The notes below the pieces were generated by a model that searched no databases, had not been told where the DNA came from, and saw only the letters and a list, made by a program, of their open reading frames with translations. Position numbers and translations under genes: made by a program. From contig JACESI010000011.1 of the NCBI GenBank assembly GCA_013911885.1, positions 11,409 through 75,408 on the forward strand: a stretch of 64,000 nucleotides of DNA, in the 5' to 3' direction. Below, piece by piece: positions 20,078-46,644 of the stretch (the first letter of the stretch is position 1; each line of letters opens with the position of its first letter). Source of the stretch: Hyphomicrobiales bacterium. Lineage in GTDB: Bacteria > Pseudomonadota > Alphaproteobacteria > Rhizobiales > JACESI01.

Positions 20078-20192
20078 GTGCTGTTTCAGCTACGACGCCC
20101 GCGAACCGGAAGATGTCGCATGACCGCTTGCGGGAAACCGCTTAGTGTTTAGAGTCTGGAAGTCGATTTTCACAAAGCCGGGATTTTTGCCG

Positions 20193-21446
20193 ATGCGCCG
20201 CTATTCGCTCGCCGCACTGTTGGGTCAGGGCCTGAAGGGTCATGAGGACTGGGAGCCTGCATGGCGTGAAACCTCCATGCCGAAACCTGCCTATGACGCG
20301 GTTATCATCGGCGGCGGTGGCCATGGGCTGGCGACCGCTTATTACATGGCCAAGGAACACGGCATGACGAATATTGCCGTCATCGAAAAAGGCTGGATCG
20401 GCGGCGGCAATTCGGGTCGCAATACCACGATCATCCGCTCCAATTATCTCTATGACGAGAGTGCCGCAATCTATAATCACGCGCTTGATCTCTGGAAAAC
20501 ACTGGGCCGTGAGCTGAATTTCAACATCATGATGAGCCATCGCGGTGTCCTCAACCTTGCCCATGACGAGGGCGAGGCGCGTTCGATCAGGCGCCGCGTG
20601 GAGGCCAACCGCCTGAACGGCGTCGAGGGCGAATGGCTCGATGCCAGACAGGTTAAGGAATTCTGCCCGATTGCCAATATCGACCGCAATGTGCGCTATC
20701 CGATCCTTGGCGCTTCCCTGCAACGCACCGGCGGCGTCAACCGCCATGATGCCGTCTGCTGGGCCTTCGCCCGTGCCGCATCCGGCATGGGGGTCGATAT
20801 CATCCAGCAATGCGAGGTGACTGGCCTCAAGATCGAGGCGGGTGTCATCACCGGACTTTCAACAACGAGGGGCGATATCCGCACGCCGAAGGTGGGCAGC
20901 GTGGCGGCCGGGCACACCAGCGTCATCGCGGCCATGGCGAACTTGCGCCTGCCGATCGAATCGCACCCGCTTCAGGCGCTGGTCTCCGAGCCGATCAAAC
21001 CGATCATGCCCTGCGTTTTGATGTCGAACGCGGTCCATGTCTATGTCTCGCAGTCGGATAAGGGCGAACTCGTGATCGGGGCAGGCATCGACCATCACTT
21101 GTCCTACACACAGCGCGGTTCCTTCAATATCATCGAAGAGCAGATGGCGGCGATGATGGAAATATTCCCGATTTTCTCGCGCCTGAAGATGCTTCGCCAA
21201 TGGGGCGGGATTGTCGATGTCTGCCCGGATGCGAGCCCGATCATTACGAAGACGCCGGTCAAGGGCTTTTTCATCAATGCAGGATGGGGCACCGGGGGCT
21301 GGAAGGCGACACCCGGCTCCGGTCATGTCTTCGCCGATCTCGTCGCAAAGGGCGAACCCGGCCCGATTGCTTCTCCCTTTTCCATGGATCGTTTCATTAC
21401 CGGCAAGCTTGTCGCCGAGCACGGCGCCGCCGCCGTGGCGCATTAG
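20193..21446 (+). CDS. soxB: Heterotetrameric sarcosine oxidase, beta subunit
   Basis: Start trimmed to ATG 20193 ([10 protein letters not shown]...). FAD fold [15 protein letters not shown]. About 417 aa and first gene of the soxBDAG order. Confidence 0.95.
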
Positions 21447-21455
21447 AGGTCAACC

Positions 21456-21833
21456 ATGTTCATCATCACCTGTCCCTATTGCGGTGCGCGCGATCAATCG
21501 GAATTCAGCAATGGCGGCGAGGCGCATATTGCCCGCCCCGAATGGCGCGATGCGATGACCGATGCCGAATGGGCGGATTTCGTTTTCATGCGCACGAACC
21601 GCAAGGGCGTCATCGCGGAGCGCTGGAACCATGCTGCCGGCTGCGGCAAATGGTTCAATGGTCTCAGGAACACGGCTACCGACCGGATCCTGGGCTTTTA
21701 CGAAATCGGCGCGAAGCCGCCGGAAATTGTCGATCAAACCCTGCCAACCCCGTCGGGCGAAATCACCGGGTCGGGCAATGATGCCGTGAAACTGATCGCG
21801 CACGATCGTGCCGCGCAGGGGGACAGACAATGA
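21456..21833 (+). CDS. soxD: Sarcosine oxidase, delta subunit
   Basis: MFIITCPYCGARDQSEFSNGGEAH... is the typical SoxD Zn-ribbon opening. Lies between soxB and soxA, with an ATGA overlap to soxA. Confidence 0.9.
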   Translation: MFIITCPYCGARDQSEFSNGGEAHIARPEWRDAMTDAEWADFVFMRTNRKGVIAERWNHAAGCGKWFNGLRNTATDRILGFYEIGAKPPEIVDQTLPTPSGEITGSGNDAVKLIAHDRAAQGDRQ

Positions 21834-24800
21834 GCACCTATCGACTTGACAAGGGCGGCCTGATCGACCGCACACAGCCTGTTCGCTTCTCGTTCGATGG
21901 GCGCAGCCAGCTCGGCTTCAAGGGCGATACCCTTGCCTCCGCGCTGATTGCAAACGGTCAGCACATGGTCGCGCGCTCGTTCAAATATCATCGCCCGCGC
22001 GGCATTCTGAGCGCCGGGCCCGAAGAACCGGCGGCCATCGTCCAGATTGGCGACGATCCTGCCCGCACCGACCCGAATATCCGGGTCACCGAGCAGGAGA
22101 TCTATGCCGGGCTTTCCGCCCGCTCGCAAAATGCCTGGCCCTCGCTCGAATTCGATATCGGTCGGGTGAATGATCTCGCCTGGCGCTTTCTGCCCGCCGG
22201 CTTCTATTACAAGACCTTCATGGGACCGCCCTTCGGCTGGATGAATTTCGAACCCTTCATCCGCGCAGCAGCAGGGCTCGGCAAGGCCCCGAGCGCGCCC
22301 GATCCGGACCGTTATGAGGTCACCAACCGCCATTGCGATGTGCTGATCATCGGTGCCGGTCCCGCGGGCCTGCGTGCCGCCGATGCGGCAAGTGCAGCCG
22401 GTGCCCGCGTTATCCTTTGCGATGAGGGCGCGATGCTGGGTGGGCAACTCCTGAGCGAAAGCGCCCTGACCACACTGAATGACGGCACGGCGCTCGATTT
22501 TGTCACGGAAACGGCAGCGACAATCGGCGCGCGAGACACTGTCACCGTTCTGACGCGGACCACCGCCTTTGGCTATTACGGCGAGAATTTCATCGGCCTC
22601 TGGGAGCGCGTGAGTGATCACCTCGCCCCATCCGAACGAGCGGCACGCGCGCCGCGCGAACGGGTCTGGCGGGTCAGGGCGCGTGAAGTGGTTCTTGCGA
22701 CCGGGGCGATCGAGCGCCCGATTGTTTTCCATGAAAACGACCGTCCCGGCATCATGCTCGCAAGCGCGGCACAGACCTATGCCATACGTTACGGTGTTCT
22801 GCCGGGGCGCACCATCTTGACCTTTGCAAACAACGATGCCGCCTGGATGAATGCCTTTGTGCTTCAGGATTCGGGTGCCCGCATCGCCGGGATCGCCGAT
22901 GCGCGCCCTTCGGTTGACGATGCGCTTCTTTCGCAAGCGGCGGCACGCGCAATCCCGGTGATGCAGCGTTCGGCTATTGTCGGCACCAGCGGCCAGGCAC
23001 GGGTGAAACAGGCGCTTGTGCGCAGCCTCGACAGCGCGTTGCAGCCGACCGGCGCGGTCCGGCCCGTTGATTGCGATCTCATCCTGGTTTCCGGGGGCTA
23101 CAACCCGAATGTGGCGCTGTTTTCACAATCCCGCGGACGGCTTGCCTATGATGCGGGTCTTGCCGCTTTCCGCCCGGCGGAATCCTTTCAGCGGGAGCGC
23201 TCCGCGGGCAGCTGCAACGGTGCTTTTTCCCTCGCCGATTGCCTTGCCGAGGGCGAGGCGGCAGGACGTGCGGCGGCTGAGGCCTGTGGTTTCAGCACAA
23301 AGGCGCTTGCCCCGCTTGCGCTTCCCATCCGCGAGCGCACCGCATCGAAAACCTATCCGCTCTGGGAGGTCCCGTCCGGCGGCAAGATCAGTCGCGCCTG
23401 GGTGGACCTTCAAAACGACGTCACCGCCAAGGATCTGAAACTCGCGGTGCAGGAAGGCTACACCTCGGTCGAACACGCCAAGCGCTATACCACGACGGGA
23501 ATGGGCACGGATCAGGGCAAGGTTGTCGGCATCAATGCTTTCGGAATTCTGGCCCAGACCATGGGCAAATCCATCCCGGAAGTGGGCGTCACGACCTATC
23601 GCCAGCCCTATAAGCCGGTGACCTTCGGCGCACTCGCGGGCCAGCATGTCGGGCCGCTGTTCCATCCCCGCCGCGGCACGCCGATGCATGAATGGCACCG
23701 GGAAAAGGGCGCGCATTTCGAGACCGTCGGCGAATGGCTGCGCGCCTGGGTCTATCCGAAGCCGGGTGAATCCTGGCAGCGTGCCGTCCAGCGCGAGGCG
23801 AAGGCCGCGCGAACCGGCATTGGTATTCTCGATGCGTCAACGCTTGGAAAGATCGACATTCGGGGGTCAGATGCGCGCGAATTCCTCAACCGGGTCTATA
23901 CCAATTCCTGGACAGGCCTCGCGCCCGGTCGCAGCCGGTACGGTCTGATGCTGAACGAAGACGGGATGGTGATCGATGATGGCGTGACAACCTGCCTTGC
24001 CGATGATCATTTCCATATGACGACGACGACCGGCGGTGCTGCGGCGGTGCTTTCTCATCTTGAGGATTATCTTCAGACAGAATGGACGGCGCTCGATGTT
24101 ACCTGCGTTTCCGTGACCGAGGAATGGGCGGTTGCCTCGATCTGCGGGCCGCACAGCCCGAAGCTGATTGCGGATCTGTTCGGCGAAGGCTTCGACCCGG
24201 AAACCATGCCCTTCATGTCGATGAAGGAGACCACGCTTGCCGGTATCCCGGTGCGTCTGTTCCGCATCTCGTTCACCGGTGAAATCTCCTACGAGATCAA
24301 CATTCCCGCCGATTATGGCCGCTGGCTCTGGGAGGTGCTGATGGAGGCGGGGGCGCCCTATGCGATTGCGCCCTATGGAACAGAGACCATGCATCTTCTG
24401 CGCGCGGAAAAAGGCTTCATCATCGTTGGTCAGGAAACCGACCGTACGGTAACGCCATATGATCTGCGCATGGACTGGATCGTGAGCCGGAAAAAGGGCG
24501 ATTTCATCGGCAAGCGCTCGCTTTTCCGCTCGGACACGATGCGTGAAGACAGGCGCCAGCTTGTCGGACTTCTGACAGAGGACGGGTCGGTTGTCGCCGA
24601 AGAGGGGGCACAGATCATCGCGACCGAGGCGGAACCCGCGCCGCCGGTGCCGATGATCGGCCATATCACCTCAAGCTATTACAGCCCGAACCTCAACCGG
24701 TCCATTGCCCTTGCCCTCGTGAAGGGCGGCGGCAAGCGTATGGGCGAGACGGTCTACATCACCCGCCGCGGTGCGGGTGCTCCGATCAAGGCAATTGTCG

Positions 24801-24838
24801 CGGAAGTCGATTTCATGGCGAAGAAAGAGGCAGAATGA
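21830..24838 (+). CDS. soxA: Sarcosine oxidase, alpha subunit
   Basis: 1002 aa. Dinucleotide fold DVLIIGAGPAGL and a C-terminal GcvT-like folate domain. Confidence 0.95.
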   Translation: MSTYRLDKGGLIDRTQPVRFSFDGRSQLGFKGDTLASALIANGQHMVARSFKYHRPRGILSAGPEEPAAIVQIGDDPARTDPNIRVTEQEIYAGLSARSQNAWPSLEFDIGRVNDLAWRFLPAGFYYKTFMGPPFGWMNFEPFIRAAAGLGKAPSAPDPDRYEVTNRHCDVLIIGAGPAGLRAADAASAAGARVILCDEGAMLGGQLLSESALTTLNDGTALDFVTETAATIGARDTVTVLTRTTAFGYYGENFIGLWERVSDHLAPSERAARAPRERVWRVRAREVVLATGAIERPIVFHENDRPGIMLASAAQTYAIRYGVLPGRTILTFANNDAAWMNAFVLQDSGARIAGIADARPSVDDALLSQAAARAIPVMQRSAIVGTSGQARVKQALVRSLDSALQPTGAVRPVDCDLILVSGGYNPNVALFSQSRGRLAYDAGLAAFRPAESFQRERSAGSCNGAFSLADCLAEGEAAGRAAAEACGFSTKALAPLALPIRERTASKTYPLWEVPSGGKISRAWVDLQNDVTAKDLKLAVQEGYTSVEHAKRYTTTGMGTDQGKVVGINAFGILAQTMGKSIPEVGVTTYRQPYKPVTFGALAGQHVGPLFHPRRGTPMHEWHREKGAHFETVGEWLRAWVYPKPGESWQRAVQREAKAARTGIGILDASTLGKIDIRGSDAREFLNRVYTNSWTGLAPGRSRYGLMLNEDGMVIDDGVTTCLADDHFHMTTTTGGAAAVLSHLEDYLQTEWTALDVTCVSVTEEWAVASICGPHSPKLIADLFGEGFDPETMPFMSMKETTLAGIPVRLFRISFTGEISYEINIPADYGRWLWEVLMEAGAPYAIAPYGTETMHLLRAEKGFIIVGQETDRTVTPYDLRMDWIVSRKKGDFIGKRSLFRSDTMREDRRQLVGLLTEDGSVVAEEGAQIIATEAEPAPPVPMIGHITSSYYSPNLNRSIALALVKGGGKRMGETVYITRRGAGAPIKAIVAEVDFMAKKEAE

Positions 24839-25443
24839 GTATCGTGAAAACACCCGTCGCCCGCTCCGTTCTCTCCCATCGCACAGCACTCGCCGGACAG
24901 GGGATTGCGCTTCGCGAGAAGCCGCATCTGCCGAAATGCATCTTGCGCGGAACAATGAAAAAGCTCGACAAACTGACCAAAACCGTGTGCGAACTCGCCG
25001 CGCCGAAGGCCGGCAAGACGAATGCGAACCGGGCAGGCGCGCTGCATTGGATCGGCCCCGACAGTCTGCTTTTTGTTGGTGACGATGTGGCGGCGATGAC
25101 AAAAGTCGAAGCACTTACTGCTCATGCCGCCCACGATTTTGCCCATGCGCGCGCTGTGAGCAACAATTATACCGTGATCGAATGTTCAGGCCCGAAGGCG
25201 CGAGACGCGCTCCAGAAGCTCGCATCGCTTGATCTTCATCCCTCGGTTTTCCGGACCGCAGATGTGGCCGGAACTGTTTTCGGCCACGCGAATGTCGTTC
25301 TCGCGGCACGAGGCGAGGCGGTGTTCGACATCATCATCCGGCGGTCCCATGCCGATTATATGTGGTGCCTGATTGCTAATGCCGGCTATGAATTCGGCCT
25401 GCCGAAGGAACTCCCCGTGAGCGGAGAGATCCTGCGGGCGTGA
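24835..25443 (+). CDS. soxG: Sarcosine oxidase, gamma subunit
   Basis: 202 aa, ATGA-coupled to soxA. Size and position fit SoxG. Confidence 0.8.
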   Translation: MSIVKTPVARSVLSHRTALAGQGIALREKPHLPKCILRGTMKKLDKLTKTVCELAAPKAGKTNANRAGALHWIGPDSLLFVGDDVAAMTKVEALTAHAAHDFAHARAVSNNYTVIECSGPKARDALQKLASLDLHPSVFRTADVAGTVFGHANVVLAARGEAVFDIIIRRSHADYMWCLIANAGYEFGLPKELPVSGEILRA

Positions 25444-25508: not shown

Positions 25509-27284
25509 TCAGGCGCTTTTCAGACGTTTCGCAAATTGTGCGCTCTCTTCAAGGAGGTTTTTTGCGTTTGTGCCGAGCCCTTGTGAAAGGTCGAGCATTT
25601 CCGCGATGGTAGTCTCCGCTTGCTGAACTGTGGCGGTGATTTCCGAAATCTGGCTGATCATCGTCTCTGCCGAGCGTGCCGACTGATTGAGCGACGTGTT
25701 CAGTTCGTCGGCGTTGCTGCGTTGCGCGGTTGTTTGGTCCGCCACCTTGTCTGATTGCGCCGCGAGTACAGAAATCGTTTCGGTAATCTTGGAAATTGCC
25801 GCAATCGCTTCGTTTGTAACCGATTGAATCTCTTCGGTCTGGGCTGAAATATCGACGGTCGCCCTTGATGTGCGGTCGGCGAGCTGCTTCACCTCCGAGG
25901 CAACGACCGAGAAGCCCTTACCTGCCTCGCCAGCACGCGCGGCTTCGATTGTCGCGTTAAGCGCGAGCAGGTTGGTCTGCTCCGCAACATCGCGAATAAG
26001 CTGAACCACTTCTCCGATCGACCGCGCACTGGTCGAAAGTTTGGCAAGGACCATGCCGGTCTGGCGCGCTTCTTCCGTTGCCGCATTGGCGGATTTGAGG
26101 GATTGCTGTGCGCTGTCGCCGATTTCCGCCACGACATTGTTCATTTTGCGCCCGAGGTCCGAGATCCGTTCGGCATGGGCTTTGACACTGACGCTTTCGC
26201 GCTCGGTCTGCATTGCCTTTTCGCTCGACAGGCGCGCGAGATTGGAGGTTTGAGCGCAGGAGGCACGCATGCGTTCGGCCTCACTCGAAAGCTGCTTTGC
26301 AAGACTGCCGACATTGGCATCAAACATGTCGGACATATCTTGAAGATTCTTGAGCGAGCGATCGAGTTTTTCTTTCTGCGCGCTGTTGTCCGCCTCGAGA
26401 TGCGAGCGCTCCCGCAAGACGGCCTGCATTTTTGCGATGGCACGGGCCACCACACCCACCTCGTCCTTGCGGTCCTGGTGCTCGATCGTGCCGCTGACAT
26501 TTCCCTCCAGAACATCGCCAATCCGGTTCGAGAGCGATTGAAGCGGAGCTGCAACGCCTTTGCTGATCACGAACAGAATACCGATCGCTATCGAGGATAA
26601 AGCGGCGATCGCTGCGATGATGCCAGTGGCGCGGCTTTGTCCCGCCGCAATGATGTCGGTGACATCGTTTTCAACTGTCACGACACCGCGCACGTCGCCA
26701 ACTTTCCAATCTTTCTTGGGCGAATCCGGATGGGCATTATGGCAAGCGACACAGCCCTCTTCCATGCGGTCGACGGTCGCAACGCGGATAAATTGCCTGC
26801 CATTGCGCTCGCTATACGCACTGATTGTCTTGTCCGGGTTTTGGACGAGTTCAGACCAGGCCTTCTGCTCGAAATCATCCATGGCCCGTCCATTGCGGCT
26901 CGGCCACGGATAGGGGCTCGCAATGCTGATCCGGTTTCCTGTGTCGAGCTGGCCTACGAAATCAAGGAGAAATGAAGTCGGAACCGGGATCGCGTTCAGT
27001 TTCTCTGCGGCGTCTGGTCCAAGGTTTGTGCCCTGCGCGGCCCTTACATGGCTGCTGACATTTGAGGAGTAGAATTTCCTGAGCGTTTTCAACTCATTAA
27101 CCGTCTTGATCGACTCAGCTGTGCTGATCGCGAAAGACGCGTTCTTGTAAGACGCCAAGAGATAGAAAAACAGGAACCCGATTAATAAGAAAAACAGGAT
27201 TGGAATCGGCAGGATTATTTTCCAGAAGAAGGAAAATTTTACCTTCGATTTCTCATCTTTGGCGACCGCATTGAATGTGTTCAT
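25509..27284 (-). CDS. Methyl-accepting chemotaxis protein with periplasmic c-type-haem (CxxCH) sensor domain
   Basis: TM1 at about aa 20-45 and TM2 at about aa 215-240. The periplasmic region contains CVACH (nt 26739-26753) in a DUF3365-like context (...[18 protein letters not shown]). HAMP plus the conserved MCP signalling hairpin ([32 protein letters not shown]). Confidence 0.9.
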
Positions 27285-27418: not shown

Positions 27419-29461
27419 TCAGGAGGAAGCGCGCTGGCGGCGGCGCGCCCGTGCCCCGCGCGTCGGATCGTCGTTGACCGCGCTGCGCTCCGGCAGGTTC
27501 ACGACACGTGCAAGATTCGGAAAGCTCTCCGTCTTGTTGGGCAGCGCCATCGCACTCACGAAATGGCGTTGGAAGTCTGGTTCGAGCGCGGTTTCGATCT
27601 TTTCGATCCGCCCGACCATGGTCTCGATTTCGCGCCGGTAGCTTTGGTTCAAAAGCGCCATGCGCGCCCCGGTCCCCGCCGCGTTGCCGACAGCGCTCAC
27701 CTGATCGAGCGGACAATCCGGGATCAGACCCAGAACCATCGCATATTTCGGGTCGATGAAATTGCCGAACGCGCCTGCAAGCTTGATCCGGCTCACATGA
27801 TCGACGCCGAGTTTGTCCATCAGCAGTTTGACGCCTGCATAAAGGGCGGCCTTGGCAAGTTGGATCGCGCGAACATCGGTCTGCCTGATCAGCAGGTCCG
27901 GATTACCGTTTTCACCGCGCCAGGCGACATAAGCGAACGTCCGGCCTTCCGCGATCACGCGGTCGGAGCGCGCAGCCATTGCGCCATCGATGATGCCGTC
28001 TTCGGTGATGATACCGGCAAGAAACATTTCAGCGATCGTCTCGATGATGCCGGAACCGCAAATTCCGGTGACGCCGGTCTGCTTGATCTCATCGGCAAAG
28101 CCGTCCTCATCCGACCATTTTTCCGATCCGATCACGCGAATGCGGGGTTCCAGCGTTTCCGTGTCGATGCGGATGCGCTCGATTGCGCCGGGTGCGGCGC
28201 GCTGGCCGCACGAGATCTCCGCCCCTTCGAAAGCCGGACCCGTGGGCGAGGAGGCGGCGACGGTGCGCGCCTTCGAGCCGAGGATGATTTCGGCATTCGT
28301 TCCGATGTCAACGAGGAGCGTGACCGCATCCTCTTCATAAGGCCGCTCGGCGAGTGTCGCTGCTGCGGCATCGGCCCCGACATGGCCGGCGATACAGGGC
28401 AGCATATAGACCCGCGCCCCAGGGTTAAGGTCGAGGCCGAGGGTGGCTGCCGGAAGATCGAGCGCCCCGGATAGCGCAAGCGCAAAAGGCGCCTGTCCGA
28501 GTTCGGTCGGGTCAAGTCCGAGAAAAAGATGATGCATGATCGGATTGCCGACAAAGACGGCTTCCAGAATATCGTTGCGCGCCACGCCGGACTGGCTGCA
28601 TATATCCTCGATCAGCCCGCTGATCGCCTCGCGCACGACACGGGTCAGCGCCGCATCGCCGCCGGGATTCATCATCACATAGGAGACCCGCGACATCAGG
28701 TCTTCGCCAAAGCGGATCTGCGGATTGGCAACACCGGCGGAAGCAAGGGTCTCGCCGGTCATCATGTCTGAGAGATGCATTGCGATGGTGGTGGAGCCGA
28801 TATCACAGGCAAGACCGTAAAGCGTCTCGCGATAGCCGGGCCAAAGTGCGGTCACTGTCGCGGTGTTCTTGCCTGCGTGGACAGCGGCGGTTACCGCCCA
28901 TTTGCCCTTGCGCAGGATTGTCTGCAGATCGCGGTAAAGGTGAAAATCAAGCGTGAGGTGCTCATAGCCCCATTCGTCCTCAAGGGTGCGCAAAAGCCGG
29001 TCGCTGTCGCCAAGCGGCTTGTGCATATCCGGCTCTTCGATCTCGACATAGTGCAGACGGGTCGCGGGGTCGCGGGCGATGATGCGGGTATCGACGGCCT
29101 TGCGCACCATCTGATTGTTGGCACTTGCTGCCTGCGGAATGTCGATGACGATGTCGCTGAGAATTCTCGACGAGCAGGAAAGCCGCCGGTCATCACCAAG
29201 ATCGCGCTTCGACTTGTAGCGCGCCTCGGTATCGGAAAAGGCTGAAAGGTGGTCAGCGCTCGAAATGATGCCGTGTTTAGCGAAATGACCTTCTGCAACG
29301 CTGACCTGGCATTTGCCGCAAATTCCGCGCCCACCGCAAACACTCTCGACATAAACCCCGAGCGTGCGGGCGGCCTCGAGTACGGGGGTGCCGATGGCGA
29401 CGCGACCGCGCTTGCCGGACGGCATGAAGAGGACAAGGGCGTTTTTCTGGCTCGTGGTCAT
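27419..29461 (-). CDS. Reductive activator of corrinoid proteins (RACo/RamA-like: plant-type 2Fe-2S ferredoxin + ASKHA ATPase, DUF4445)
   Basis: Start trimmed to ATG 29461 (MTTSQKNALVLFMPSGK...). N-terminal ferredoxin Cys pattern CGGRGICGKCQV. Large ASKHA-like body (DIGSTTIAMHL..., VDIGTNAEI...). Last enzyme gene of the corrinoid operon. Confidence 0.85.
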   Translation of the reverse strand: MTTSQKNALVLFMPSGKRGRVAIGTPVLEAARTLGVYVESVCGGRGICGKCQVSVAEGHFAKHGIISSADHLSAFSDTEARYKSKRDLGDDRRLSCSSRILSDIVIDIPQAASANNQMVRKAVDTRIIARDPATRLHYVEIEEPDMHKPLGDSDRLLRTLEDEWGYEHLTLDFHLYRDLQTILRKGKWAVTAAVHAGKNTATVTALWPGYRETLYGLACDIGSTTIAMHLSDMMTGETLASAGVANPQIRFGEDLMSRVSYVMMNPGGDAALTRVVREAISGLIEDICSQSGVARNDILEAVFVGNPIMHHLFLGLDPTELGQAPFALALSGALDLPAATLGLDLNPGARVYMLPCIAGHVGADAAAATLAERPYEEDAVTLLVDIGTNAEIILGSKARTVAASSPTGPAFEGAEISCGQRAAPGAIERIRIDTETLEPRIRVIGSEKWSDEDGFADEIKQTGVTGICGSGIIETIAEMFLAGIITEDGIIDGAMAARSDRVIAEGRTFAYVAWRGENGNPDLLIRQTDVRAIQLAKAALYAGVKLLMDKLGVDHVSRIKLAGAFGNFIDPKYAMVLGLIPDCPLDQVSAVGNAAGTGARMALLNQSYRREIETMVGRIEKIETALEPDFQRHFVSAMALPNKTESFPNLARVVNLPERSAVNDDPTRGARARRRQRASS

Positions 29462-29509
29462 GATCTCGATATGCCGATTTTCAGACGATCCGCAAGGCAA
29501 TCCTCTCGC

Positions 29510-30445
29510 CTAGGCACCGCCGACACGTCCCGCGCGCCCGCCACGGCGTCTGCCGCCCGTTGAGGCGGCATTCGGATCTGCGCCCGGTGTCGGCTCGCGG
29601 TAGGTTTTGATCCATGTGGCGCAATGTTCATCGGTCGACATCAGCACATTCGCCGCGCGCACCATTTCCATTTCCTGCGGGCGGCACGGGTTCATGATCG
29701 CCGATGTCATCCCCGAGGCAATCGCCATCGGCAGGAAAGCCGCGTTGATCGCATGGCGATGCGGCAGGCCGAAAGAAACATTCGAGGCACCGCAGGTGGT
29801 ATTGACGCCAAGTTCTTCGCGCAGGCGCCGCACAAGGCGGAAAACCTGAAGCCCGGCCGTGCCCATCGCGCCAATCGGCATGACCAGCGGATCGACAATG
29901 ATGTCATGCGGCTTGATGCCATAATCGGCGGCGTGCTCGACAATGCGCTTTGCGACTGCGAAACGCACGTCCGGGTCCTCGGAAATGCCGGTCTCGTCGT
30001 TCGAGATCGCAACAACCGGCACGTTGTATTTCTTGATCAAGGGAAGGATTGCCTCGAGCTTTTCGACCTCGCCGGTAACGGAGTTGACGAGGGGACGGCC
30101 TTCAGTGACCGCAAGTCCGGCAGCAAGGGCGGAAGTCACGGACGAATCGATGGAAATCGGAAGATTGGTGAGGCTCTGGACAAGTTTCAATGTCTGCACC
30201 AGAAGCGGCGGCTCGGTCTCGTTCGGGTTCACCGCCGTCACCCCGGCATTAACATCGAGCATTGTCGCGCCCGCGGCAACCTGTTCGAGCACATCCCTGG
30301 TCACCGTGTCGAAATTGCCGGCTTTCATTTCCTCGGCGAGCTTCTTGCGCCCGGTCGGGTTGATCCGCTCGCCGATGACGCAAAAAGGCTGGTCGAAACC
30401 GATATGGATTTCCCTGGATTTGGAGGCAACAAGCGTGCGCGTCAT
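29510..30445 (-). CDS. Methyltetrahydrofolate:corrinoid methyltransferase (pterin-binding/MtrH-like domain)
   Basis: Start trimmed to ATG 30445, preceded by AAGGA. Pterin-binding TIM-barrel signatures (VIGERINPTGRKKL, MLDVNAG, SIDS, NSV, GASNVSFGLP). Confidence 0.85.
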   Translation of the reverse strand: MTRTLVASKSREIHIGFDQPFCVIGERINPTGRKKLAEEMKAGNFDTVTRDVLEQVAAGATMLDVNAGVTAVNPNETEPPLLVQTLKLVQSLTNLPISIDSSVTSALAAGLAVTEGRPLVNSVTGEVEKLEAILPLIKKYNVPVVAISNDETGISEDPDVRFAVAKRIVEHAADYGIKPHDIIVDPLVMPIGAMGTAGLQVFRLVRRLREELGVNTTCGASNVSFGLPHRHAINAAFLPMAIASGMTSAIMNPCRPQEMEMVRAANVLMSTDEHCATWIKTYREPTPGADPNAASTGGRRRGGRAGRVGGA

Positions 30446-30514
30446 CGAAACATCCTTGCGATGGGGCGGTGGCCCGAAAGACACCGACACAGTGAAATTG
30501 GAAAGGGCGATGAA

Positions 30515-31444
30515 TCAGGCGTGGCCAGAGCTAGTTTCATTACCGTATAAAGATATCTTTATATTCCAACTTCCTCGTTGTGCAAGCCATTCCGCTGATT
30601 TATTTACACCGCCGAAGGGAAACACATGCATCTGTGCCACAGGCCCATCGGGATTTTCCTGCCAGAATTTTTCGATCGGCTTCACCACGGGTTCGGGGGA
30701 GGGTGTGGTCGCGAGAGCCGTCAGCGCGCCAGCGCGCTTTTTCAGGAATTTCATCGAGTTGCCGATACCGGCAATCGCAGCGAAGCGCAGCAGCGTCGTC
30801 ATCTTGGCCGGACCGGCGACACCGAGGTGGATCGGCAGGTTGATACCGATGGCCTTCACATGCCAGGCCCAGTTGGCAAAGGCCTCGCCGTCGAAACCAA
30901 ACTGCGTCACGATCCGCATTTGTGCATTGGTTTCGCTCTGGAAATCGGCCTTTTCCCTCAGGATTGGATAATCCTGGCCCTTTGGGGCCGAAGGGTTGCC
31001 TTCCGGGTGGCCGCCGACTGCGATGAATTTGATGCCGTTGCGCTCCATCACGCCAGAGCGCAGGATATCCATGGTCGAAGCATAGGGCCCCATCTGCCGG
31101 TTCGGTTCGCCCGCAACGATGAGTACGTCGTCAAGACCCGCCTCCTGTGTCAGTCGCTTGATGTGGCTTTCCAGTTCCGCGGCACTGTTGAGGCGGCGGG
31201 CGGCAATGTGCTGAACCGGGCGGTAACCGGCATCGGTCAACCGGCGGGCAACAGTCGCAAGCTCAAGATGGCTGTGATTGCCGATATCGGTGATGTAGGT
31301 TCGGGTGCCCGGCGGAAAAAGCCCGGCCGGGGCGCCTTCCGCCAGGATGGCCTTGGGTGAAATCTCGATCGAAGCCGGGATAAAGGCGTTTGCCGCGCTC
31401 ATTGGAATACTGCCGGGTGTAAGATCAAGCGCCTTGATCCCCAT
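30515..31444 (-). CDS. metF: Methylenetetrahydrofolate reductase (MetF family)
   Basis: ATG 31444 lies 8 nt downstream of a perfect GAGGAGG. About 309 aa with MetF-like segments (EISPKA..., GGHPEGNP..., QFGFD). Confidence 0.8.
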   Translation of the reverse strand: MGIKALDLTPGSIPMSAANAFIPASIEISPKAILAEGAPAGLFPPGTRTYITDIGNHSHLELATVARRLTDAGYRPVQHIAARRLNSAAELESHIKRLTQEAGLDDVLIVAGEPNRQMGPYASTMDILRSGVMERNGIKFIAVGGHPEGNPSAPKGQDYPILREKADFQSETNAQMRIVTQFGFDGEAFANWAWHVKAIGINLPIHLGVAGPAKMTTLLRFAAIAGIGNSMKFLKKRAGALTALATTPSPEPVVKPIEKFWQENPDGPVAQMHVFPFGGVNKSAEWLAQRGSWNIKISLYGNETSSGHA

Positions 31445-31766
31445 TTTCAAAACCTCCTCGTTCGATCAGCATTTTGACGCGCTCCTTCGGATACGCCGCC
31501 TCAATTGCTGCCGCCGCGCTCGCCGCCTCGGCTTCCAGATCGTCGCCGCAGGCTTCCGGATCGCTTTTGCGCCATTGTTCGAGATAGTCATCCGTCTGAT
31601 CGAGACCGGCGCGCATGGCGCAGGCATCAATCGCCGTGATGAACCGCTTGTCGAGTTCCCGCTTTGCACTGACCCGTCCGGCCTTGCAGATCACCTGCGC
31701 CGGAATGTCCCGCCAATAGACGATCACCTTCTGGGCGGCATTTCGGCTATTGCTGGAACGGGGCAT
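31425..31766 (-). CDS. Small conserved hypothetical protein, resembling the family annotated 'virulence factor' that co-occurs with metF/corrinoid MT genes
   Basis: 113-aa ORF with AGGAGG 7 nt upstream of ATG 31766. Its 3' end overlaps the metF start. The family assignment is from memory only. Confidence 0.6.
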   Translation of the reverse strand: MPRSSNSRNAAQKVIVYWRDIPAQVICKAGRVSAKRELDKRFITAIDACAMRAGLDQTDDYLEQWRKSDPEACGDDLEAEAASAAAAIEAAYPKERVKMLIERGGFENGDQGA

Positions 31767-31863
31767 TTCAAGACCTCCTGATATCGATGATAGCGCTTAC
31801 ATGCGCCGTTTTCTGATGCTGGCGCGACATGTCTGCGTCGGTTATAGAGCTTAGTCGGAATCC

Positions 31864-32598
31864 TTAAGGGCGCAAATCGGCAATTGCGGCTGAAAGGTCG
31901 CCATAGCCCGTCGGGCGGTGCTCGAACTCGAGCCCGAGTTTTGCAGCAATTGCCCGGGCCCGGTCAAGCAGGTCAGGGTCCTCGGCCTGCGACAAAAACA
32001 CAACTTTTTCATATGCGCCGAAATAGGCGTCGCGCAATTCCGGGTGGCGATCAAGGCCGAGCGGACGGAAGGTGAGGGCGTCGAAATGGCGGGCAAGAAA
32101 ATCAGTCAGAAAAAACGAACGCATATCCAGATCACCGCGTGCGGTGAACGCTTCGGCGCCGCTGAAAAACGCATAGCAATGCGCGCCGGGAAGGCGGGCA
32201 ACCCCCTCCTTTTCCAGAAGCGCATCAAGAAGGCCGCCCGTCCCGCAATCGGCGTAACCGCAGAACACGCTTGTGAACCCCGCAGCACGCGCCTCGGCAA
32301 TCGCGCGCGCCATCTCCGGCACGATTTTTTGCGGCGTGTTGTGGAGTTTGGCCGGAAGGCAGGTGAGCGCGACATGCTCAAGCCGGTTGATTGCCAATAT
32401 GTCGAGGATTTCGCGGGCCAGAGCCCCGCAGGCAATCACGCAGACCCGATCGGGCGTCGGCGCAAGCGTATAGGCGGGTGCGCCTTTTTCGATGAGAAAG
32501 TCGAAATCATTCGGCCGCAGTTCACCAATCCTGCCCGCCCGCCCGCCTTTGCGGGATGGGCGCGCGCGCCTCTCTCCCCCGCGCAGGTCGGGAGGCAT
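31864..32598 (-). CDS. DUF1638 domain-containing protein
   Basis: Core VCVIACGALAREI...CGYADCGTGG resembles DUF1638 proteins found in corrinoid methyltransferase clusters. I chose ATG 32598, 2 nt after the corrinoid-protein stop. The track ORF extends to a TTG at 32676, so the start is uncertain. Confidence 0.7.
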   Translation of the reverse strand: MPPDLRGGERRARPSRKGGRAGRIGELRPNDFDFLIEKGAPAYTLAPTPDRVCVIACGALAREILDILAINRLEHVALTCLPAKLHNTPQKIVPEMARAIAEARAAGFTSVFCGYADCGTGGLLDALLEKEGVARLPGAHCYAFFSGAEAFTARGDLDMRSFFLTDFLARHFDALTFRPLGLDRHPELRDAYFGAYEKVVFLSQAEDPDLLDRARAIAAKLGLEFEHRPTGYGDLSAAIADLRP

Positions 32599-32600
32599 CG

Positions 32601-33299
32601 TCAGGAAGCGCGGCTGTTGTGGCGTCGCGCGATCAGATTTTTCGCGGTTTCGACAGCCACGGCCGCGTCCCGGCAATAAGCATCAGCGCCAACGGCCGCA
32701 CCGAATTCCTCGTTGAGTGGTGCGCCACCGACAAGCACGATATAATCATCGCGAATGCCGATTGCCTTCATCTGGTCGATCACGACCTTCATATAGGGCA
32801 TGGTCGTCGTCAGCAGCGCCGACATGCCAAGAATATCCGGTTTGTGCTCATTGAGGGCTGCGATGAATTCGTCGGCGTCGGTGTTGATGCCGAGATCATA
32901 AACATCAAAGCCCGCACCTTCCATCATCATGCCGACCAGGTTCTTGCCGATATCGTGAATATCGCCCTTGACCGTGCCCGTCACCATCGAGCCGAGCTTC
33001 GGCGCGCCGGTTTCAACGAGAAGCGGACGCAGGATGAACATGCCCGCTTTCATAGCATTGGCGGCGAGAAGCACTTCCGGCACGAACAGAATACCGTCGC
33101 GAAAATCATTGCCGACAATCCGCATACCCTCGACCAATGATTTGGTGAGAACGTCATAAGGCGTCCATCCGCGCTCCAGAAGGATGTTGGTCCCCTCTTC
33201 GATTTCCTCTTTGAGGCCATCGTAAAGATCATCCATCATTTGTGCGACAAGGTCATCGTCGGAGAGTTCGGAAAGAATAATTTCATCTTCATCGGACAT
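32601..33299 (-). CDS. Corrinoid (cobalamin-binding) methyl-carrier protein (B12-cap + Rossmann B12-binding domain)
   Basis: 232 aa. Contains the base-off/His-on DxHxxG motif (GDIHDIGKNLV) followed by SALLTTT and GGAP(L), as in MtgC/MtbC/MetH cobalamin domains. Confidence 0.9.
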   Translation of the reverse strand: MSDEDEIILSELSDDDLVAQMMDDLYDGLKEEIEEGTNILLERGWTPYDVLTKSLVEGMRIVGNDFRDGILFVPEVLLAANAMKAGMFILRPLLVETGAPKLGSMVTGTVKGDIHDIGKNLVGMMMEGAGFDVYDLGINTDADEFIAALNEHKPDILGMSALLTTTMPYMKVVIDQMKAIGIRDDYIVLVGGAPLNEEFGAAVGADAYCRDAAVAVETAKNLIARRHNSRAS

Positions 33300-33321
33300 A
33301 GCGGCGGTCTTTCGGGATCTG

Positions 33322-33346
33322 GCACGATCAGACTGAATAATCGTGC
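33322..33346. promoter_or_regulatory. Inverted repeat GCACGAT-N11-ATCGTGC in the divergent corrinoid-protein/mttB control region (candidate operator)
   Basis: Read directly. Lies 23 nt upstream of the corrinoid-protein ATG. Its function is not established. Confidence 0.3.
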
Positions 33347-33561
33347 GTAATCATTTCTCTTTGAAGCTGCAAGCAAAACCATTCCAAAGCCAGAGAAATA
33401 GCGTAGCGCTGATTTTGCCCGGAAAGTGTGTGTGGCGCGGCACGACAGGGCGCAAATAAGCTATTGCGGAAAACTGGCATCTCTAGTCTGAATAGGCGAA
33501 GCACGGCGACCGACCGCCACAGGCAAGCGCATGCAAAACTTTATCAGACGGGCAAGAATCG

Positions 33562-35118
33562 ATGGCTGACCCTTCAGAATCGGAGACACCGCAGGCAGGC
33601 CGACGCAGCGGCGGCAGAAACGCGCGCCATGCAGCCCGTATCAGCGGCGCAATGGTCAAGAACTCCTACATAAGGCGCAAGATCCCAGCCTATGAGGTGT
33701 TCGATGAAGAAGGCGTTGCGATCATCGAAAACAACGCCGATATCATTCTGGAAGAGATCGGAATCGAGTTCCGCGATGACCCTGAATCGGTTTCGATGTG
33801 GCGCGCTGCGGGCGCGCATATCGACGGTGAACGCGTTCGCTTTCCGAAAGGCATGTTGCGCGAACTGATCCGCACCGCGCCGCGGGAATTCACCCAGTTT
33901 GCGCGCAATCCGGCCCGATCGGTCCAGATCGGCGGCAACAACACCGTGTTCGCGCCGGTCTATGGCCCGCCTTTCGTGCGCACGCTCGAAGGCGAAAGAC
34001 GCTATGCGACCATTGAGGATTTCCGCTCATTCGTGAAACTCGCCTATCTCGCTCCCGCCATGCACCATTCCGGTGGCACGGTGTGCGAGCCTGTCGATAT
34101 CCCGGTCAACAAGCGTCATCTCGATATGGTCTACAGCCATATCCGCTATTCCGATATGCCGTTCATGGGTTCGGTGACTGCCCCTGAACGGGCGCAGGAT
34201 TCGGTTGATATGGCGAAACTCGTTTTCGGCGCGGATTTTGTCGATCAGAACTGCGTTCTGCTCAATCTCATCAACGTCAACTCGCCGATGACTTATGACG
34301 CGACCATGCTCGGCTCCGCCAAGGTCTACGCCCGCAACAACCAGGCCTGCGTGATTTCGCCGTTCATTCTGGCGGGCGCCATGTCGCCGGTGACGGCGGC
34401 GGCGACCCTGACCCAGATCCTTGCCGAGGCGATGGCGGGTATGGCCTTCACCCAGCTCTGCCGGCCCGGCGCGCCTGTCGTCTTCGGCACATTCGCAAGC
34501 TCGATCTCGATGCAATCCGGCGCACCGACCTTCGGCACGCCCGAACCGGCAATGGTGCTTTATGGCGCAGCCCAGCTTGCCCGACGGCTTGGCGTTCCGT
34601 TCCGTTCAGGTGGCTCGCTCTGCGGGTCCAAAGTCGTGGACGCGCAGGCCGCCTATGAAAGCGCACAGACGATCACCCCGACGCTTCTTGCCGGAACCAA
34701 TTTCGTGCTCCACGCCGCGGGCTGGCTCGAGGGGGGGCTTGTCTCCTCATTCGAGAAATTCGTGATGGATTGCGATCAGCTCGGCATGATGCAGGCAATG
34801 GCGGGCGGCATTGACCTGACGGAAAACGGCCAGGGCCTTTCTGCCTTGCGCGAAGTCGGGCCGGGCGCTCATTTTCTCGGCTGTGCGCACACGCAGGCGA
34901 ATTTCCAGACCGCGTTTTATCGGTCGAGCCTTGCCGACAACAATTCCTATGAGCAATGGCTCGCGGATGGCGAGAACCGGATCGAGGATCGTGCCCGCAA
35001 ATCCTGCCGCAAGATGCTCGACGAATATCAGGCCCCCGCGCTCGATATCGCCGTCGATTCAGCGCTTATCGACTTCATCGACCAGAAAAAGCGCTCGATG
35101 CCCGATGCCTTCACGTGA
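33562..35118 (+). CDS. MttB-superfamily methyltransferase, non-pyrrolysine member (quaternary-amine:corrinoid methyltransferase candidate)
   Basis: Uninterrupted 518-aa ORF with no in-frame TAG. TIM-barrel MttB-like sequence throughout (YEVFDEEG...IENNADIILEEIGIEF..., NSPMTYD, FILAGAMSPVT, GAPTFGTPE). Divergent from the corrinoid-protein operon. Confidence 0.9.
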   Translation: MADPSESETPQAGRRSGGRNARHAARISGAMVKNSYIRRKIPAYEVFDEEGVAIIENNADIILEEIGIEFRDDPESVSMWRAAGAHIDGERVRFPKGMLRELIRTAPREFTQFARNPARSVQIGGNNTVFAPVYGPPFVRTLEGERRYATIEDFRSFVKLAYLAPAMHHSGGTVCEPVDIPVNKRHLDMVYSHIRYSDMPFMGSVTAPERAQDSVDMAKLVFGADFVDQNCVLLNLINVNSPMTYDATMLGSAKVYARNNQACVISPFILAGAMSPVTAAATLTQILAEAMAGMAFTQLCRPGAPVVFGTFASSISMQSGAPTFGTPEPAMVLYGAAQLARRLGVPFRSGGSLCGSKVVDAQAAYESAQTITPTLLAGTNFVLHAAGWLEGGLVSSFEKFVMDCDQLGMMQAMAGGIDLTENGQGLSALREVGPGAHFLGCAHTQANFQTAFYRSSLADNNSYEQWLADGENRIEDRARKSCRKMLDEYQAPALDIAVDSALIDFIDQKKRSMPDAFT

Positions 35119-35235
35119 AAGGCAGGCGATGCCGTTCCGAGGATCGCGCAATCGGAAGGGTTCAAGCTGCACTATGAGGTGGTGCGAAGAGCGTTCAAGC
35201 CCTACGAATAAGAGCTTTGCCTGGATTGAAAAACC

Positions 35236-36273
35236 TCAGGCTTCTGCCCGTCGGCGCCCGCGACGTTCGCGGCGCGGTGCGGTACCATCATCTCTTGCCG
35301 GCGGCGCGACGAGTTTGCCGATTTTCTCGACAATTGCCTCAATCGTCGGACGCTCCGCGCGCTGATAGCGGTCGAGCGCATCACGCATGGCTTTCACATG
35401 CTCGGGCTTTGTCCCGCAACAGCCGCCAATGATCCGCACACCTGCATCCGCCGCCATGGCGATATAATCAGCCATGAGATCGGGGGTGCCGGTATAGACC
35501 GTGGTCGCGCCTTTGACGACGGGAATGCCGCAATTTGCTTTGGCGACAATGATCGCTTCCGGCGCAGCATCGGTCATTGACAGGACCGAGACCAGAAGAT
35601 CGGAAGCCCCGACGCCGCAATTCGCGCCAAAGGCAAGCGGCTTGCCGGGAAGGGCATGTGCGAGTTCCGCAAGGGCTGCCGGAGCGAGACCCATCATGGT
35701 CTTTCCTGCCGTGTCGAAACTCGCGGTGAAGACATAGGCAATGCCGACCTCGACCGCTGCTTCCGCAGCCGCCTGAATTTCGTCGGCGGCAGACATTGTT
35801 TCGATCCACGCGACATCGGCGCCGCCATCCTTGAGGCCACGCATCTGTTCTTTGAAGGCATTGCGTGCGTCGGTCAGTGTCATCGCGCCGAGCGGCACGA
35901 AAAGTTCGCCGGTCGGGCCGACTGAACCGGCGACAATCACCGGCCGCTCCGCCTTTTCCGCCACACGGGAGGCAATTTCCGCGCCGGCCCGGTTGATTTC
36001 ATAGGTTTGATTTTCCGCCTTGTGCAATTTCAGGCGCGGCGCGTTGGCACCGAATGTGTTGGTCAGAATGATATCCGAACCTGCATCGACAAACATCTGA
36101 TGCAGGGCTTCCGGCTTGTGCGGCTCGCTGACATTCCAAAGATCCGGTGGAAACCCCGGCTCCAGCCCCATTTCCATGAAATTGGTCCCGGTCGCTCCAT
36201 CGGCGAGAAGGATCTGCTTTTCATTCAAAAGCGCTTGAAGCGAGCTGCGCATGGCGATTGTCCGTTTCGTCAA
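35236..36273 (-). CDS. Homocysteine S-methyltransferase-domain protein (MetH N-terminal module / BHMT-like)
   Basis: 345 aa. Hcy-binding barrel (LLADGATGTN..., IILTNTFGAN) with zinc-ligand cysteines (NCG... and GGCCGT). Confidence 0.85.
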   Translation of the reverse strand: MTKRTIAMRSSLQALLNEKQILLADGATGTNFMEMGLEPGFPPDLWNVSEPHKPEALHQMFVDAGSDIILTNTFGANAPRLKLHKAENQTYEINRAGAEIASRVAEKAERPVIVAGSVGPTGELFVPLGAMTLTDARNAFKEQMRGLKDGGADVAWIETMSAADEIQAAAEAAVEVGIAYVFTASFDTAGKTMMGLAPAALAELAHALPGKPLAFGANCGVGASDLLVSVLSMTDAAPEAIIVAKANCGIPVVKGATTVYTGTPDLMADYIAMAADAGVRIIGGCCGTKPEHVKAMRDALDRYQRAERPTIEAIVEKIGKLVAPPARDDGTAPRRERRGRRRAEA

Positions 36274-42594: not shown

Positions 42595-43722
42595 CTATTT
42601 ATATTTCAGCATATGCCCGGACCGTTTTGCCTTTGTCCTGAGGTAATGGCTGTTGTTCTCGTTCATCGGCGCCTGATGCGAAATCCGCTCGACAACATCA
42701 AGACCGTGCGCGCGCAAGGCGTCCACTTTCTTTGGATTGTTTGTCAGGATTGCGACAGACTGCCAGCCGAGGGCGCGCACCATTGTCGCGGCAGCCTGAT
42801 AGTCGCGCATGTCATCGGGAAAGCCGAGTGTGCGGTTCGCGTCGACCGTATCCAGCGACTGGTCCTGAAGGTCATAGGCGCGGATCTTGTTGACGAGGCC
42901 GATGCCACGCCCTTCCTGATCGAGATAAAGAACGGCACCGCCGCCCAGTTCGTCGAGACGCTCGATTGCAAGGCGTAACTGATCGCCGCAATCGCAACGC
43001 TCCGAGCCGAAAAGATCGCCGGTCGCACAGGCCGAGTGAATGCGGATCGGAAGCGGTTTGCTGATATCGGGTTTTCCGACGATGAGCGCGATTTCCGTTT
43101 CTCCGGTCGCATATTGAAACACGACCATGCGGGTGTTGATGCCGCCGCGCACGGGGATCGGCGCTTCGCTCTTGCGGCGCAGGCTGCGGGTCTTCGCGGC
43201 TTGATAAGCCTCAACGGATGCTTTCTCGATCACGGTGATGCCTTCGCTTGCAAGCGCGCCTGCATTCGGCACATCGGCATAGAAAAGGCAGGCCGGGATA
43301 AGCCGCGCCTTGATCAGAAGATCGAGAGCGGGCCGGGCGTCCGGCTGTTCGAAAACAGGCCGGCGGCTCACCTTGGCCGGATGTTTGGCGGCGATGGCAT
43401 AAAGCTTCTCCGGCGTGTCGCCCGGCGCAATCGACATCGAAATCGGGGCCAGCTTATCAAAGCCGAGCGCGTCACCGCGCTCCGAACTCACGATCAAAAG
43501 CGGGCTGCGACCGGGGTAGCGGCGCATGAAGGCTGCGAAGGTCTGCTCCGACATCCCGTCCACGCCCAGGCAAAGATGAAAATCATCCTCATCCTTGATC
43601 AGGAAAGGCTCACCAAGCCGAATCGCGGCAATTGCGATCGCTACCGAAAAAAGCGCTTCGTGATCGGTTTTCGCATCATTCTGCGCAACAGAAACGAGAG
43701 AACTTTCAAGTTTGAAGGTCAT
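42595..43722 (-). CDS. GTP cyclohydrolase II homolog with degenerate N-terminal RibB-like domain
   Basis: C-terminal half carries the GCH II zinc/catalytic region IRIHSACATGDLFGSERCDCGDQL...YLDQEGRGIGLVNKIRAY. The N-terminal 170 aa or so lack obvious DHBP-synthase motifs. It is not in a canonical rib operon. Confidence 0.8.
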   Translation of the reverse strand: MTFKLESSLVSVAQNDAKTDHEALFSVAIAIAAIRLGEPFLIKDEDDFHLCLGVDGMSEQTFAAFMRRYPGRSPLLIVSSERGDALGFDKLAPISMSIAPGDTPEKLYAIAAKHPAKVSRRPVFEQPDARPALDLLIKARLIPACLFYADVPNAGALASEGITVIEKASVEAYQAAKTRSLRRKSEAPIPVRGGINTRMVVFQYATGETEIALIVGKPDISKPLPIRIHSACATGDLFGSERCDCGDQLRLAIERLDELGGGAVLYLDQEGRGIGLVNKIRAYDLQDQSLDTVDANRTLGFPDDMRDYQAAATMVRALGWQSVAILTNNPKKVDALRAHGLDVVERISHQAPMNENNSHYLRTKAKRSGHMLKYK

Positions 43723-46609: not shown

Positions 46610-46644
46610 GGCGCCCTTTTCGCGGCTCGTTCTGGCTTTATGTC

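Follow-up and report, generated by a model that had tools for sequence, protein, structure and literature searches.

A split methionine synthase cluster

The 64,000-nucleotide stretch analysed here (the window; contig JACESI010000011.1 of the Hyphomicrobiales bacterium assembly GCA_013911885.1) carries, between 27.4 and 36.3 kb, the gene set of a split methionine synthase and aerobic glycine-betaine methyltransferase, as identified from its Pfam domains, and several of the encoded enzymes bear the short, arginine-rich terminal tails that are the subject of this report. The same gene set constitutes the split methionine synthase of Phaeobacter inhibens (Price et al. 2018, PMC5764234) and the MtgBCDE glycine-betaine methyltransferase/methionine synthase of Ruegeria pomeroyi (Mausz et al. 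2025, PMC12478193), with the same domains in each case (PF06253, PF02607 plus PF02310, PF00809, PF02574, Fer2 plus RACo, PF07796, and MTHFR), and it is only for these two organisms that the literature holds proof of the dual function, in the form of methionine auxotrophy and lost growth on glycine betaine. The function of the cluster is already known; the new element is the tails and their co-occurrence with an N-terminal extension of the corrinoid carrier protein MtgC. Neither Arg-rich termini nor an acidic MtgC extension is mentioned in these two papers, in a 2025 MtgBCD preprint, or in a 2026 paper on the MtgB structure, and a literature search covering few subscription journals found no description of the tails. 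The genes of the cluster are as follows (coordinates are those of the window).

27419-29500, minus strand: RamA/RACo-like reductive activase of the corrinoid protein (Pfam Fer2, RACo_linker, Raco_middle, and RACo_C_ter)
29510-30445 (open reading frame, ORF, to 30490), minus strand: MtgD, a methyl-tetrahydrofolate (methyl-THF):corrinoid, pterin-binding methyltransferase of 311 amino acids (aa) from the ATG at 30445 (Pfam Pterin_bind)
30515-31450, minus strand: MetF2-like methylene-THF reductase (Pfam MTHFR, PF02219), without a tail and serving as in-cluster negative control
31425-31766, minus strand: small PF13769 'Virulence_fact' protein (Pfam), without a tail
31864-32598, minus strand: DUF1638 protein (Pfam DUF1638, PF07796), from an ATG at 32598 that lies 2 nt past the MtgC stop codon
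32601-33299, minus strand: MtgC, the corrinoid (B12) carrier and hub of the system (Pfam B12-binding_2, PF02607, and B12-binding, PF02310)
33562-35118, plus strand: MtgB-like methyltransferase of the MttB superfamily (MttB below), the methyl donor to the corrinoid (Pfam MTTB, PF06253, 770 bits)
35236-36273, minus strand: MtgE, the homocysteine S-methyltransferase module (Pfam S-methyl_trans, PF02574, residues 22-300)

The pterin (PF00809) and homocysteine (PF02574) modules and MetF2 (PF02219) are separate adjacent genes, and a Fer2 plus RACo/DUF4445 activase and a DUF1638 gene both lie in the cluster by their Pfam matches. In MttB, PF06253 spans residues 15-514 of an uninterrupted ORF without pyrrolysine, and the nearest structure is PDB 4YYC. 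The true start of RACo is likely the ATG at 29461, and homology to the RACo of PDB 3ZYY/4C1N reaches query residue 656. For MtgD, the ATG at 30445 is the most likely start, and a database protein (P0001) is identical to this 311-aa product. The real start of DUF1638 is the ATG at 32598: its longest ORF, from 32676, runs into the end of MtgC, and the extra part is not conserved. We rejected as artefacts both the start at 32676 and an antisense ORF (31918-32679, plus strand) that a caller based on GC content at third codon positions (GC3) had given a gene-like score.

Arginine-rich tails on the cluster enzymes

Five proteins of the cluster carry an Arg-rich terminal segment in their translations, at the C terminus in RACo, MtgD, and MtgE and at the N terminus in MttB and DUF1638.

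27422-27466, minus strand: C-terminal Arg-rich tail of RACo, ending ...PTRGARARRRQRASS before the stop codon
29513-29557, minus strand: C-terminal Arg-rich end of the pterin methyltransferase MtgD, ending ...GGRRRGGRAGRVGGA before the stop codon
29513-29593, minus strand: C-terminal linker and Arg tail of MtgD, EPTPGADPNAASTGGRRRGGRAGRVGGA, predicted to be disordered
35239-35277, minus strand: C-terminal Arg tail of MtgE, ending ...PRRERRGRRRAEA before the stop codon
33598-33639, plus strand: N-terminal Arg motif of MttB, GRRSGGRNARHAAR
32530-32583, minus strand: N-terminal Arg motif of DUF1638, RGGERRARPSRKGGRAGR, read from the ATG at 32598

These peptides had been pointed out by a first-pass annotation made from the sequence alone, and all five are present at the coordinates that it gave, with the pterin and homocysteine methyltransferase peptides quoted there running one to two residues longer than their spans. 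We counted Arg in 15-residue windows near the ends of 49 crude gene calls across the window, with a cut-off of at least five Arg. Four cluster termini reached it (RACo C terminus, 6; MtgD C terminus, 5; MttB N terminus, 5; MtgE C terminus, 7), and all remaining termini had at most four, in agreement with the annotation, which had noted no other dense Arg termini in the window. By our own arithmetic, 4 of 16 cluster termini versus 0 of 82 others corresponds to a hypergeometric p of ~5e-4. The annotation had further placed the tails outside the recognizable folds, and here MttB departs from it, with its motif lying within the Pfam MTTB model (profile position 1 is residue 15). This model begins within the Arg motif, which has thus been implicitly catalogued, without interpretation.

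Structurally, the tails come in family-specific flavours: a pure Arg run in RACo, RRRGGRxxRR in MtgD, RRERRGRRR in MtgE, and, N-terminally, RRxGGRxARRxAR in MttB. The best-defined case is MtgD, in which the folded domain ends at a conserved W-I-x-x-Y-R helix and is followed by a linker of 10-26 residues (median 21) that is 66% Ala/Gly/Pro and variable in sequence, after which RR(R)GGRxxR occurs in 109 of 114 homologs, ending ~3 residues from the C terminus. An AlphaFold2 model of MtgD built on an 80-sequence alignment has a confident core and a mean pLDDT (predicted local distance difference test score) of 90.4; pLDDT drops from above 90 to 73, 49, 43, and 37 over residues 281-311, and linker and tail are accordingly predicted to be disordered. 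The pattern, as modelled, is that of a tethered short linear motif, being terminal, disordered, and conserved after a variable linker.

Conservation of the tails and selection at the protein level

Scanning GTDB species genomes with the DUF1638 protein yielded 80 loci from Stappiaceae, Paracoccaceae, Hyphomicrobiaceae, Rhodospirillales, Thiolinea, Competibacteraceae, and Acidimicrobiia. Across this set, at least five Arg were found in the last 15 residues of 50 of 51 RACo, 32 of 34 MtgD, and 26 of 33 MtgE proteins (79-98%; the other MtgE proteins had 3-4 Arg), versus 18 of 726 unrelated neighbour genes (2.5%), several of which were spurious ORFs or structured domains. Under the same cut-off, no Arg-rich C terminus was found in MtgC (0/58), MetF2 (0/28), PF13769 proteins (0/8), or the C termini of MttB (0/20), and an RR-G-R..R regular expression matched 2 of 726 C termini and 0 of 726 N termini of unrelated genes. 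Typical ortholog ends are ...GGRRRRRRRG in RACo, ...GGRRRGGRAARRxAG in MtgD, and ...RRERRGRRRG in MtgE. The N-terminal motif of MttB is likewise kept, both among its orthologs and in paralogs that share 40% and 28% identity with it (for example RRGGRAGRAGR and SRRKGGGREARRAAR), and 114 of 120 database homologs of MtgD with at least 79% identity have five or more Arg in their last 15 residues. Both of the computational findings by which the annotation would have refuted its docking idea, poor conservation in orthologs and a comparable frequency of Arg-rich termini elsewhere, turned out the other way. In the subclade formed by L116, L119, L120, and L140, the corrinoid protein has an acidic extension (MSEELDVTKLETPEL...), the Arg tails of RACo and MtgD are weaker, and MtgE is tail-less, ending in ...AMAAALKGRLAS.

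At the codon level, the tail arginines (n = 841) are encoded by CGC (42%), CGG (28%), CGT (11.5%), CGA (7%), AGG (7%), and AGA (5%), and orthologous poly-Arg runs are encoded by differing codons. With the full set of six Arg codons in use and orthologous runs spelled differently, the constraint is on the peptide and not on the DNA or mRNA; selection on the tails acts at the protein level. A nucleotide-level element, such as a ribosome-binding site or terminator, was rejected on the same kind of evidence, since the amino acids are kept with synonymous codons whatever the downstream gene or its orientation. In one Paracoccaceae metagenome-assembled genome (MAG; L039), Lys partly takes the place of Arg in the tails of RACo, MtgD, and MttB (VHKARRRKKR; KSETRSEKRKSRVGG...), which suggests that the conserved property is charge rather than arginine itself.

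The DUF1638 motif has a narrower distribution. It recurs in the five nearest loci (L002, MSKRRGGRSARL; L003 and L004, MSEGQRRRGGRQARI; L011, MSKRQGGRSARL; L001, RKGGRKARL), and this recurrence supports the start at 32598. The fifth tail that the first-pass annotation had proposed, conditional on this start, is thus real and conserved among close relatives, and it is missing from more distant DUF1638 proteins. The suggestion that the tails might be conserved only where the genes are clustered did not hold: where MtgE, MtgC, and DUF1638 are the only cluster genes within 10 kb, as in roseobacter-type loci, MtgE still has its tail. These roseobacter-type loci, which have no RACo and MtgD within 10 kb, are the sole basis of this answer; in Ensifer (P0074), the genes are clustered.

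An acidic extension of MtgC co-occurs with the tails

The net charges of the products in the window single out MtgC, at -21 overall and -10 over residues 1-30, as the sole strongly acidic product of the cluster (RACo, -14; MttB, -9; MtgE, -5; MtgD, neutral; DUF1638, +3; the PF13769 protein has a near-neutral charge, median -2). The N terminus of MtgC reaches ~10-14 residues past those of 1Y80 and MttC:

33237-33299, minus strand: acidic N-terminal extension of MtgC and start of cap helix 1, MSDEDEIILSELSDDDLVAQM, kept in orthologs as MSDEDDIDLASLSDDELVEQM

An AlphaFold2 model of MtgC shows coil up to residue 8, gives the first four residues a pLDDT below 50, and has cap helix 1 begin at residue 14, so the N-terminal residues are predicted to be flexible. 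The acidic extension was not found in 1Y80, in 7XCN_M, or in the corrinoid proteins of tail-less clusters. Evolutionarily, MtgC belongs to a clade of at least 70% identity over 95 loci, which takes in Alpha- and Gammaproteobacteria and Actinobacteria-labelled MAGs and, with the window protein, the corrinoid proteins of roseobacter and Stappia loci. Such unusually high conservation would fit a protein constrained by its many partners, a cluster that has spread horizontally, or the two combined.

Solved homologs from anaerobes lack the tails. The MtgB of Desulfitobacterium hafniense (2QNE/9YCE) has no motif and starts at a position matching query residue 33-41, the RACo of Carboxydothermus hydrogenoformans (3ZYY) has no tail and ends ~9 residues past the homology, and the MeTr structures and relatives of the pterin methyltransferase at 51% identity or less have no tail and end around query residue 285-299; among 50%-identity representatives, stand-alone pterin methyltransferases at up to 51% identity end directly after the last helix. 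No Arg tail was seen in MetH-like fusions among the MtgD homologs, and 4YYC, a structure of rhizobial type, does carry the MttB motif. In the homologous clusters L082, L085, and L087, no member has a tail and the corrinoid protein (208-217 aa) has no extension; the MttB proteins of tail-less clusters also lack the N-terminal Arg motif. The first of these (L082) reads MttB, corrinoid protein, methyltransferase (MT), RACo, DUF1638, MttB, at a GC content of 64.5%, and its tail-less homologs have charges of -26 and -24 (the two MttB proteins), -18 (RACo), and -10 (MT).

A DUF1638 alignment, used as the seed for scanning metagenomes, brought 80 further, more diverse loci into the comparison, and we scored 167 loci. 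Scoring the extension against the tail gave 59/1 versus 3/9 for RACo and 49/2 versus 2/11 for MtgD, and the discordant cases are artefacts of the threshold or of paralogs. Every corrinoid protein with the extension belongs to the one clade of at least 70% identity (95 loci), and the tail-less ones fall in 5-8 other clades. MtgE and MetF2 were found nearby in 41/92 and 30/92 loci of the tail-bearing clade, the only clade with them, versus 0/14 for tail-less clusters; the tail-bearing clade is of the dual-function type, where the carrier serves the largest number of partners. Within one lineage, four to five non-homologous enzymes each independently gained a cationic tail, at differing termini, the hub gained an anionic one, and the non-clients of the operon gained none.

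A tail-less MttB-corrinoid protein-MT-RACo-DUF1638 type was seen at 11 loci (L082, L085, L087, L091, L094, L095, L099, L103, L104, L118, and L164). That no homocysteine methyltransferase or MetF lies within 10 kb in this type (0/14) suggests a demethylase-only system, distinct from dual-function MtgBCDE.

A proposed docking role for the tails

In the published model, the proteins that engage MtgC are MtgB, MtgD, MtgE, and RamA, with DUF1638 tied genetically to reactivation. Because the tailed proteins are exactly these partners, we propose, with moderate confidence and on comparative evidence, that the tails are most likely short, disordered, cationic docking peptides that tether the client enzymes electrostatically to acidic MtgC. 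Among these clients, MtgB would methylate MtgC, MtgD would exchange the methyl group with THF, MtgE would pass it to homocysteine, and the RamA/RACo activase would re-reduce Co(II), with DUF1638 joining them in the nearest clade only. The contact site on MtgC would be its N-terminal extension, which is acidic and predicted to be flexible, together with helix 1 of the B12 cap, also acidic. Weak, fast-exchanging charge-charge tethers of this kind would raise the local concentration of the partners and the rate of their encounters while permitting quick partner switching, would stand in for the covalent linkers of MetH, and would let one carrier be common to at least four partners; the tails could possibly also help to draw the cap off the corrin. 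Binding to MtgC, the kinetic benefit, and the part in cap displacement are what we infer from the finding that the tails are conserved, confined to clients, and present together with the extension.

Comparison with known systems places this proposal. The homocysteine, pterin, and B12 cap plus Rossmann modules of classical MetH (Escherichia coli, Thermotoga maritima) are homologous to those of the cluster, and its B12 module visits its partners in turn; there, however, the modules are covalently linked and include an activation module, whereas here they are separate proteins for which we propose a non-covalent pairing through charged tails, with a RamA-like activase in place of the activation module. 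The anaerobic systems (D. hafniense MtgB/MtgC/MtgA; CoFeSP/MeTr/RACo; MttB-MttC) likewise combine homologous enzymes with a corrinoid protein (structures 2QNE/9YCE, 3ZYY/4C1N, 1F6Y/2YCI, 1Y80, and 7XCN), but they have no Arg tail on the partners and no acidic extension, and dock by folded interfaces. By analogy and without homology, acyl carrier protein, ferredoxin/flavodoxin, and single-stranded DNA-binding protein (SSB) are small charged hubs that serve many enzymes through weak electrostatic recognition. With acyl carrier protein and ferredoxin/flavodoxin the partner offers a folded basic patch, and with SSB it is the hub that carries an acidic C-terminal tail, whereas here hub and clients would both be tailed, with opposite charges.

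The pattern to be looked for in a docking tail, a motif confined to MtgC partners together with a complementary feature on the hub, is what we found, within one clade and with the qualifications that one MtgE subclade lacks the tail and that DUF1638 has it in the nearest clade only. Of the partners that the first-pass annotation had listed for a docking or co-localization signal (the acidic corrinoid protein, a scaffold, polyanions, or a compartment), the corrinoid protein is the candidate favoured by the client restriction, the MtgC charge of -21, and the lack of both features in outgroups.

Several observations weigh against tethering to MtgC. All extension bearers form one clade, so that the association between extension and tail goes back to about a single origin, and the Fisher p-values make it look stronger than it is. 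Systems that have no tails, MttC among them, also possess a fairly acidic cap helix. In the first 80 loci, tail charge correlates with MtgC charge weakly for RACo (rho -0.38, p = 0.01, uncorrected) and not significantly for MtgD and MtgE. The MtgE tail is missing from the L116/L119/L120/L140 subclade despite tails on RACo and MtgD, and the DUF1638 motif was not found in Roseibium/Stappia and most other loci.

Among other explanations, the tails might bind a different polyanion (RNA, the nucleoid, polyphosphate, or anionic membrane lipids) and so co-localize the enzymes, perhaps as a condensate or as a membrane-proximal metabolon near the betaine transporter; the MtgC extension would then be a separate trait, or MtgC just another polyanion among several. 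The RGG-like composition (RRRGGRxxRR, poly-Arg runs of 6-7) and predicted disorder are typical of nucleic-acid-binding and phase-separating tails, and a tail common to several enzymes of one pathway would fit co-localization; yet the tails are confined to MtgC clients, with none on MetF2, PF13769, sarcosine oxidase, the dimethylglycine (DMG) dehydrogenase-like protein, or FolD, they occur only in the clade whose MtgC bears the acidic extension, and no shell or scaffold gene was found in the window by Pfam, and we regard this possibility as unlikely. A little less credible still is an action of each tail on its own protein, be it autoinhibition over the corrinoid-docking face, solubility or charge balance, a folding aid, or a stability or degradation signal. 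Disordered terminal segments often have such roles, and RACo (-14), MttB (-9), and MtgE (-5) are net acidic, but MtgD is net neutral and has the best-defined motif, the tail-less L082 homologs are more acidic than their tailed counterparts (MttB -26 and -24, RACo -18, MT -10), and both the client-only distribution and the acidic MtgC tail of the same clade would be left unexplained.

Docking to some other component, namely DUF1638, another client enzyme, or the polyglutamate tail of folate, seems to us improbable. DUF1638 is genetically required in the P. inhibens system (Price et al. 2018, PMC5764234) and MtgD uses folate; against this, DUF1638 is found in tailed and tail-less clusters alike, is not acidic (+3), and itself bears the motif in the nearest clade, and folate is the substrate of only one tailed enzyme. 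An artefact of composition or annotation (GC codon bias, terminator read-through, or wrong starts and stops) is refuted and deserves almost no credence: although the window is 58% GC and the longest-ORF start of DUF1638 (32676) is truly artefactual, the tails are kept across Alpha- and Gammaproteobacteria and Actinobacteria against a background of 2.5%, with synonymous Arg codons, tail-less L082 has the higher GC content of 64.5%, and identical database gene models exist.

Two further candidates were rejected. A Tat (twin-arginine translocation) signal peptide does not fit tails of which three in five are C-terminal, MttB continues with ISGAMVKNSYIRRK after its motif without a hydrophobic stretch, and the enzymes are cytoplasmic. 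The cargo peptides of encapsulins and microcompartments are likewise short, terminal, and common to linked enzymes, but they are hydrophobic or amphipathic and need a shell gene, whereas these tails are Arg/Gly only, and no Linocin_M18 or BMC domain was found by Pfam among 48 window products.

Going beyond tethering of single clients to MtgC, the Arg tails of the four to five clients and the polyacidic, disordered MtgC N-tail might together form a multivalent system of opposite charges that assembles a dynamic, coacervate-like B12 methyl-transfer metabolon, with RR(R)GGRxxR as a portable recruitment tag; we offer this as a speculative extension and consider it rather unlikely. If it were true, the RR(R)GGRxxR tag could serve to predict or engineer new MtgC clients.

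Neighbouring genes in the window

Beyond the cluster, the window also encodes the remainder of the route from glycine betaine to glycine, with a DMG dehydrogenase-like protein, soxBDAG, and FolD.

12880-13836: FolD
14473-17088: DMG dehydrogenase-like protein
20145-25443: soxBDAG

Between soxG and the RACo gene lies a methyl-accepting chemotaxis protein with a Tll0287-like sensor domain (25509-27284, minus strand), which may be a chemoreceptor tied to this betaine/one-carbon island. Downstream of the cluster, positions 42595-48115 hold a GTP cyclohydrolase II, a RibD_C, and a PTPS-like gene, of pterin/riboflavin type, together with glycosyltransferases. A low-GC island occupies positions 54001-56000 (GC 0.43 versus ~0.58 elsewhere), and its 387-aa ORF (54125-55288, plus strand), which has no Pfam match, may be a recently acquired gene.

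Implications for MtgBCDE systems

On the comparative evidence, the tails are genuine, conserved, and specific, and the system that bears them is a known one, not a new one. MtgBCDE/split MetH is a major route by which abundant bacteria of marine and soil habitats demethylate glycine betaine and make methionine, and a pair of tails of opposite charge would offer a mutation-testable answer to how one B12 carrier is shared among a donor methyltransferase (often with several paralogs), a folate methyltransferase that works in both directions, a homocysteine methyltransferase, and a repair activase. If this is true, the tail pair would do without covalent bonds what the interdomain linkers do in MetH. 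As a signature, the combination of an Arg tail on the enzymes and an acidic N-extension on the corrinoid protein separates dual-function MtgBCDE-type clusters from putative demethylase-only ones, and it may also flag those MttB paralogs that use MtgC.

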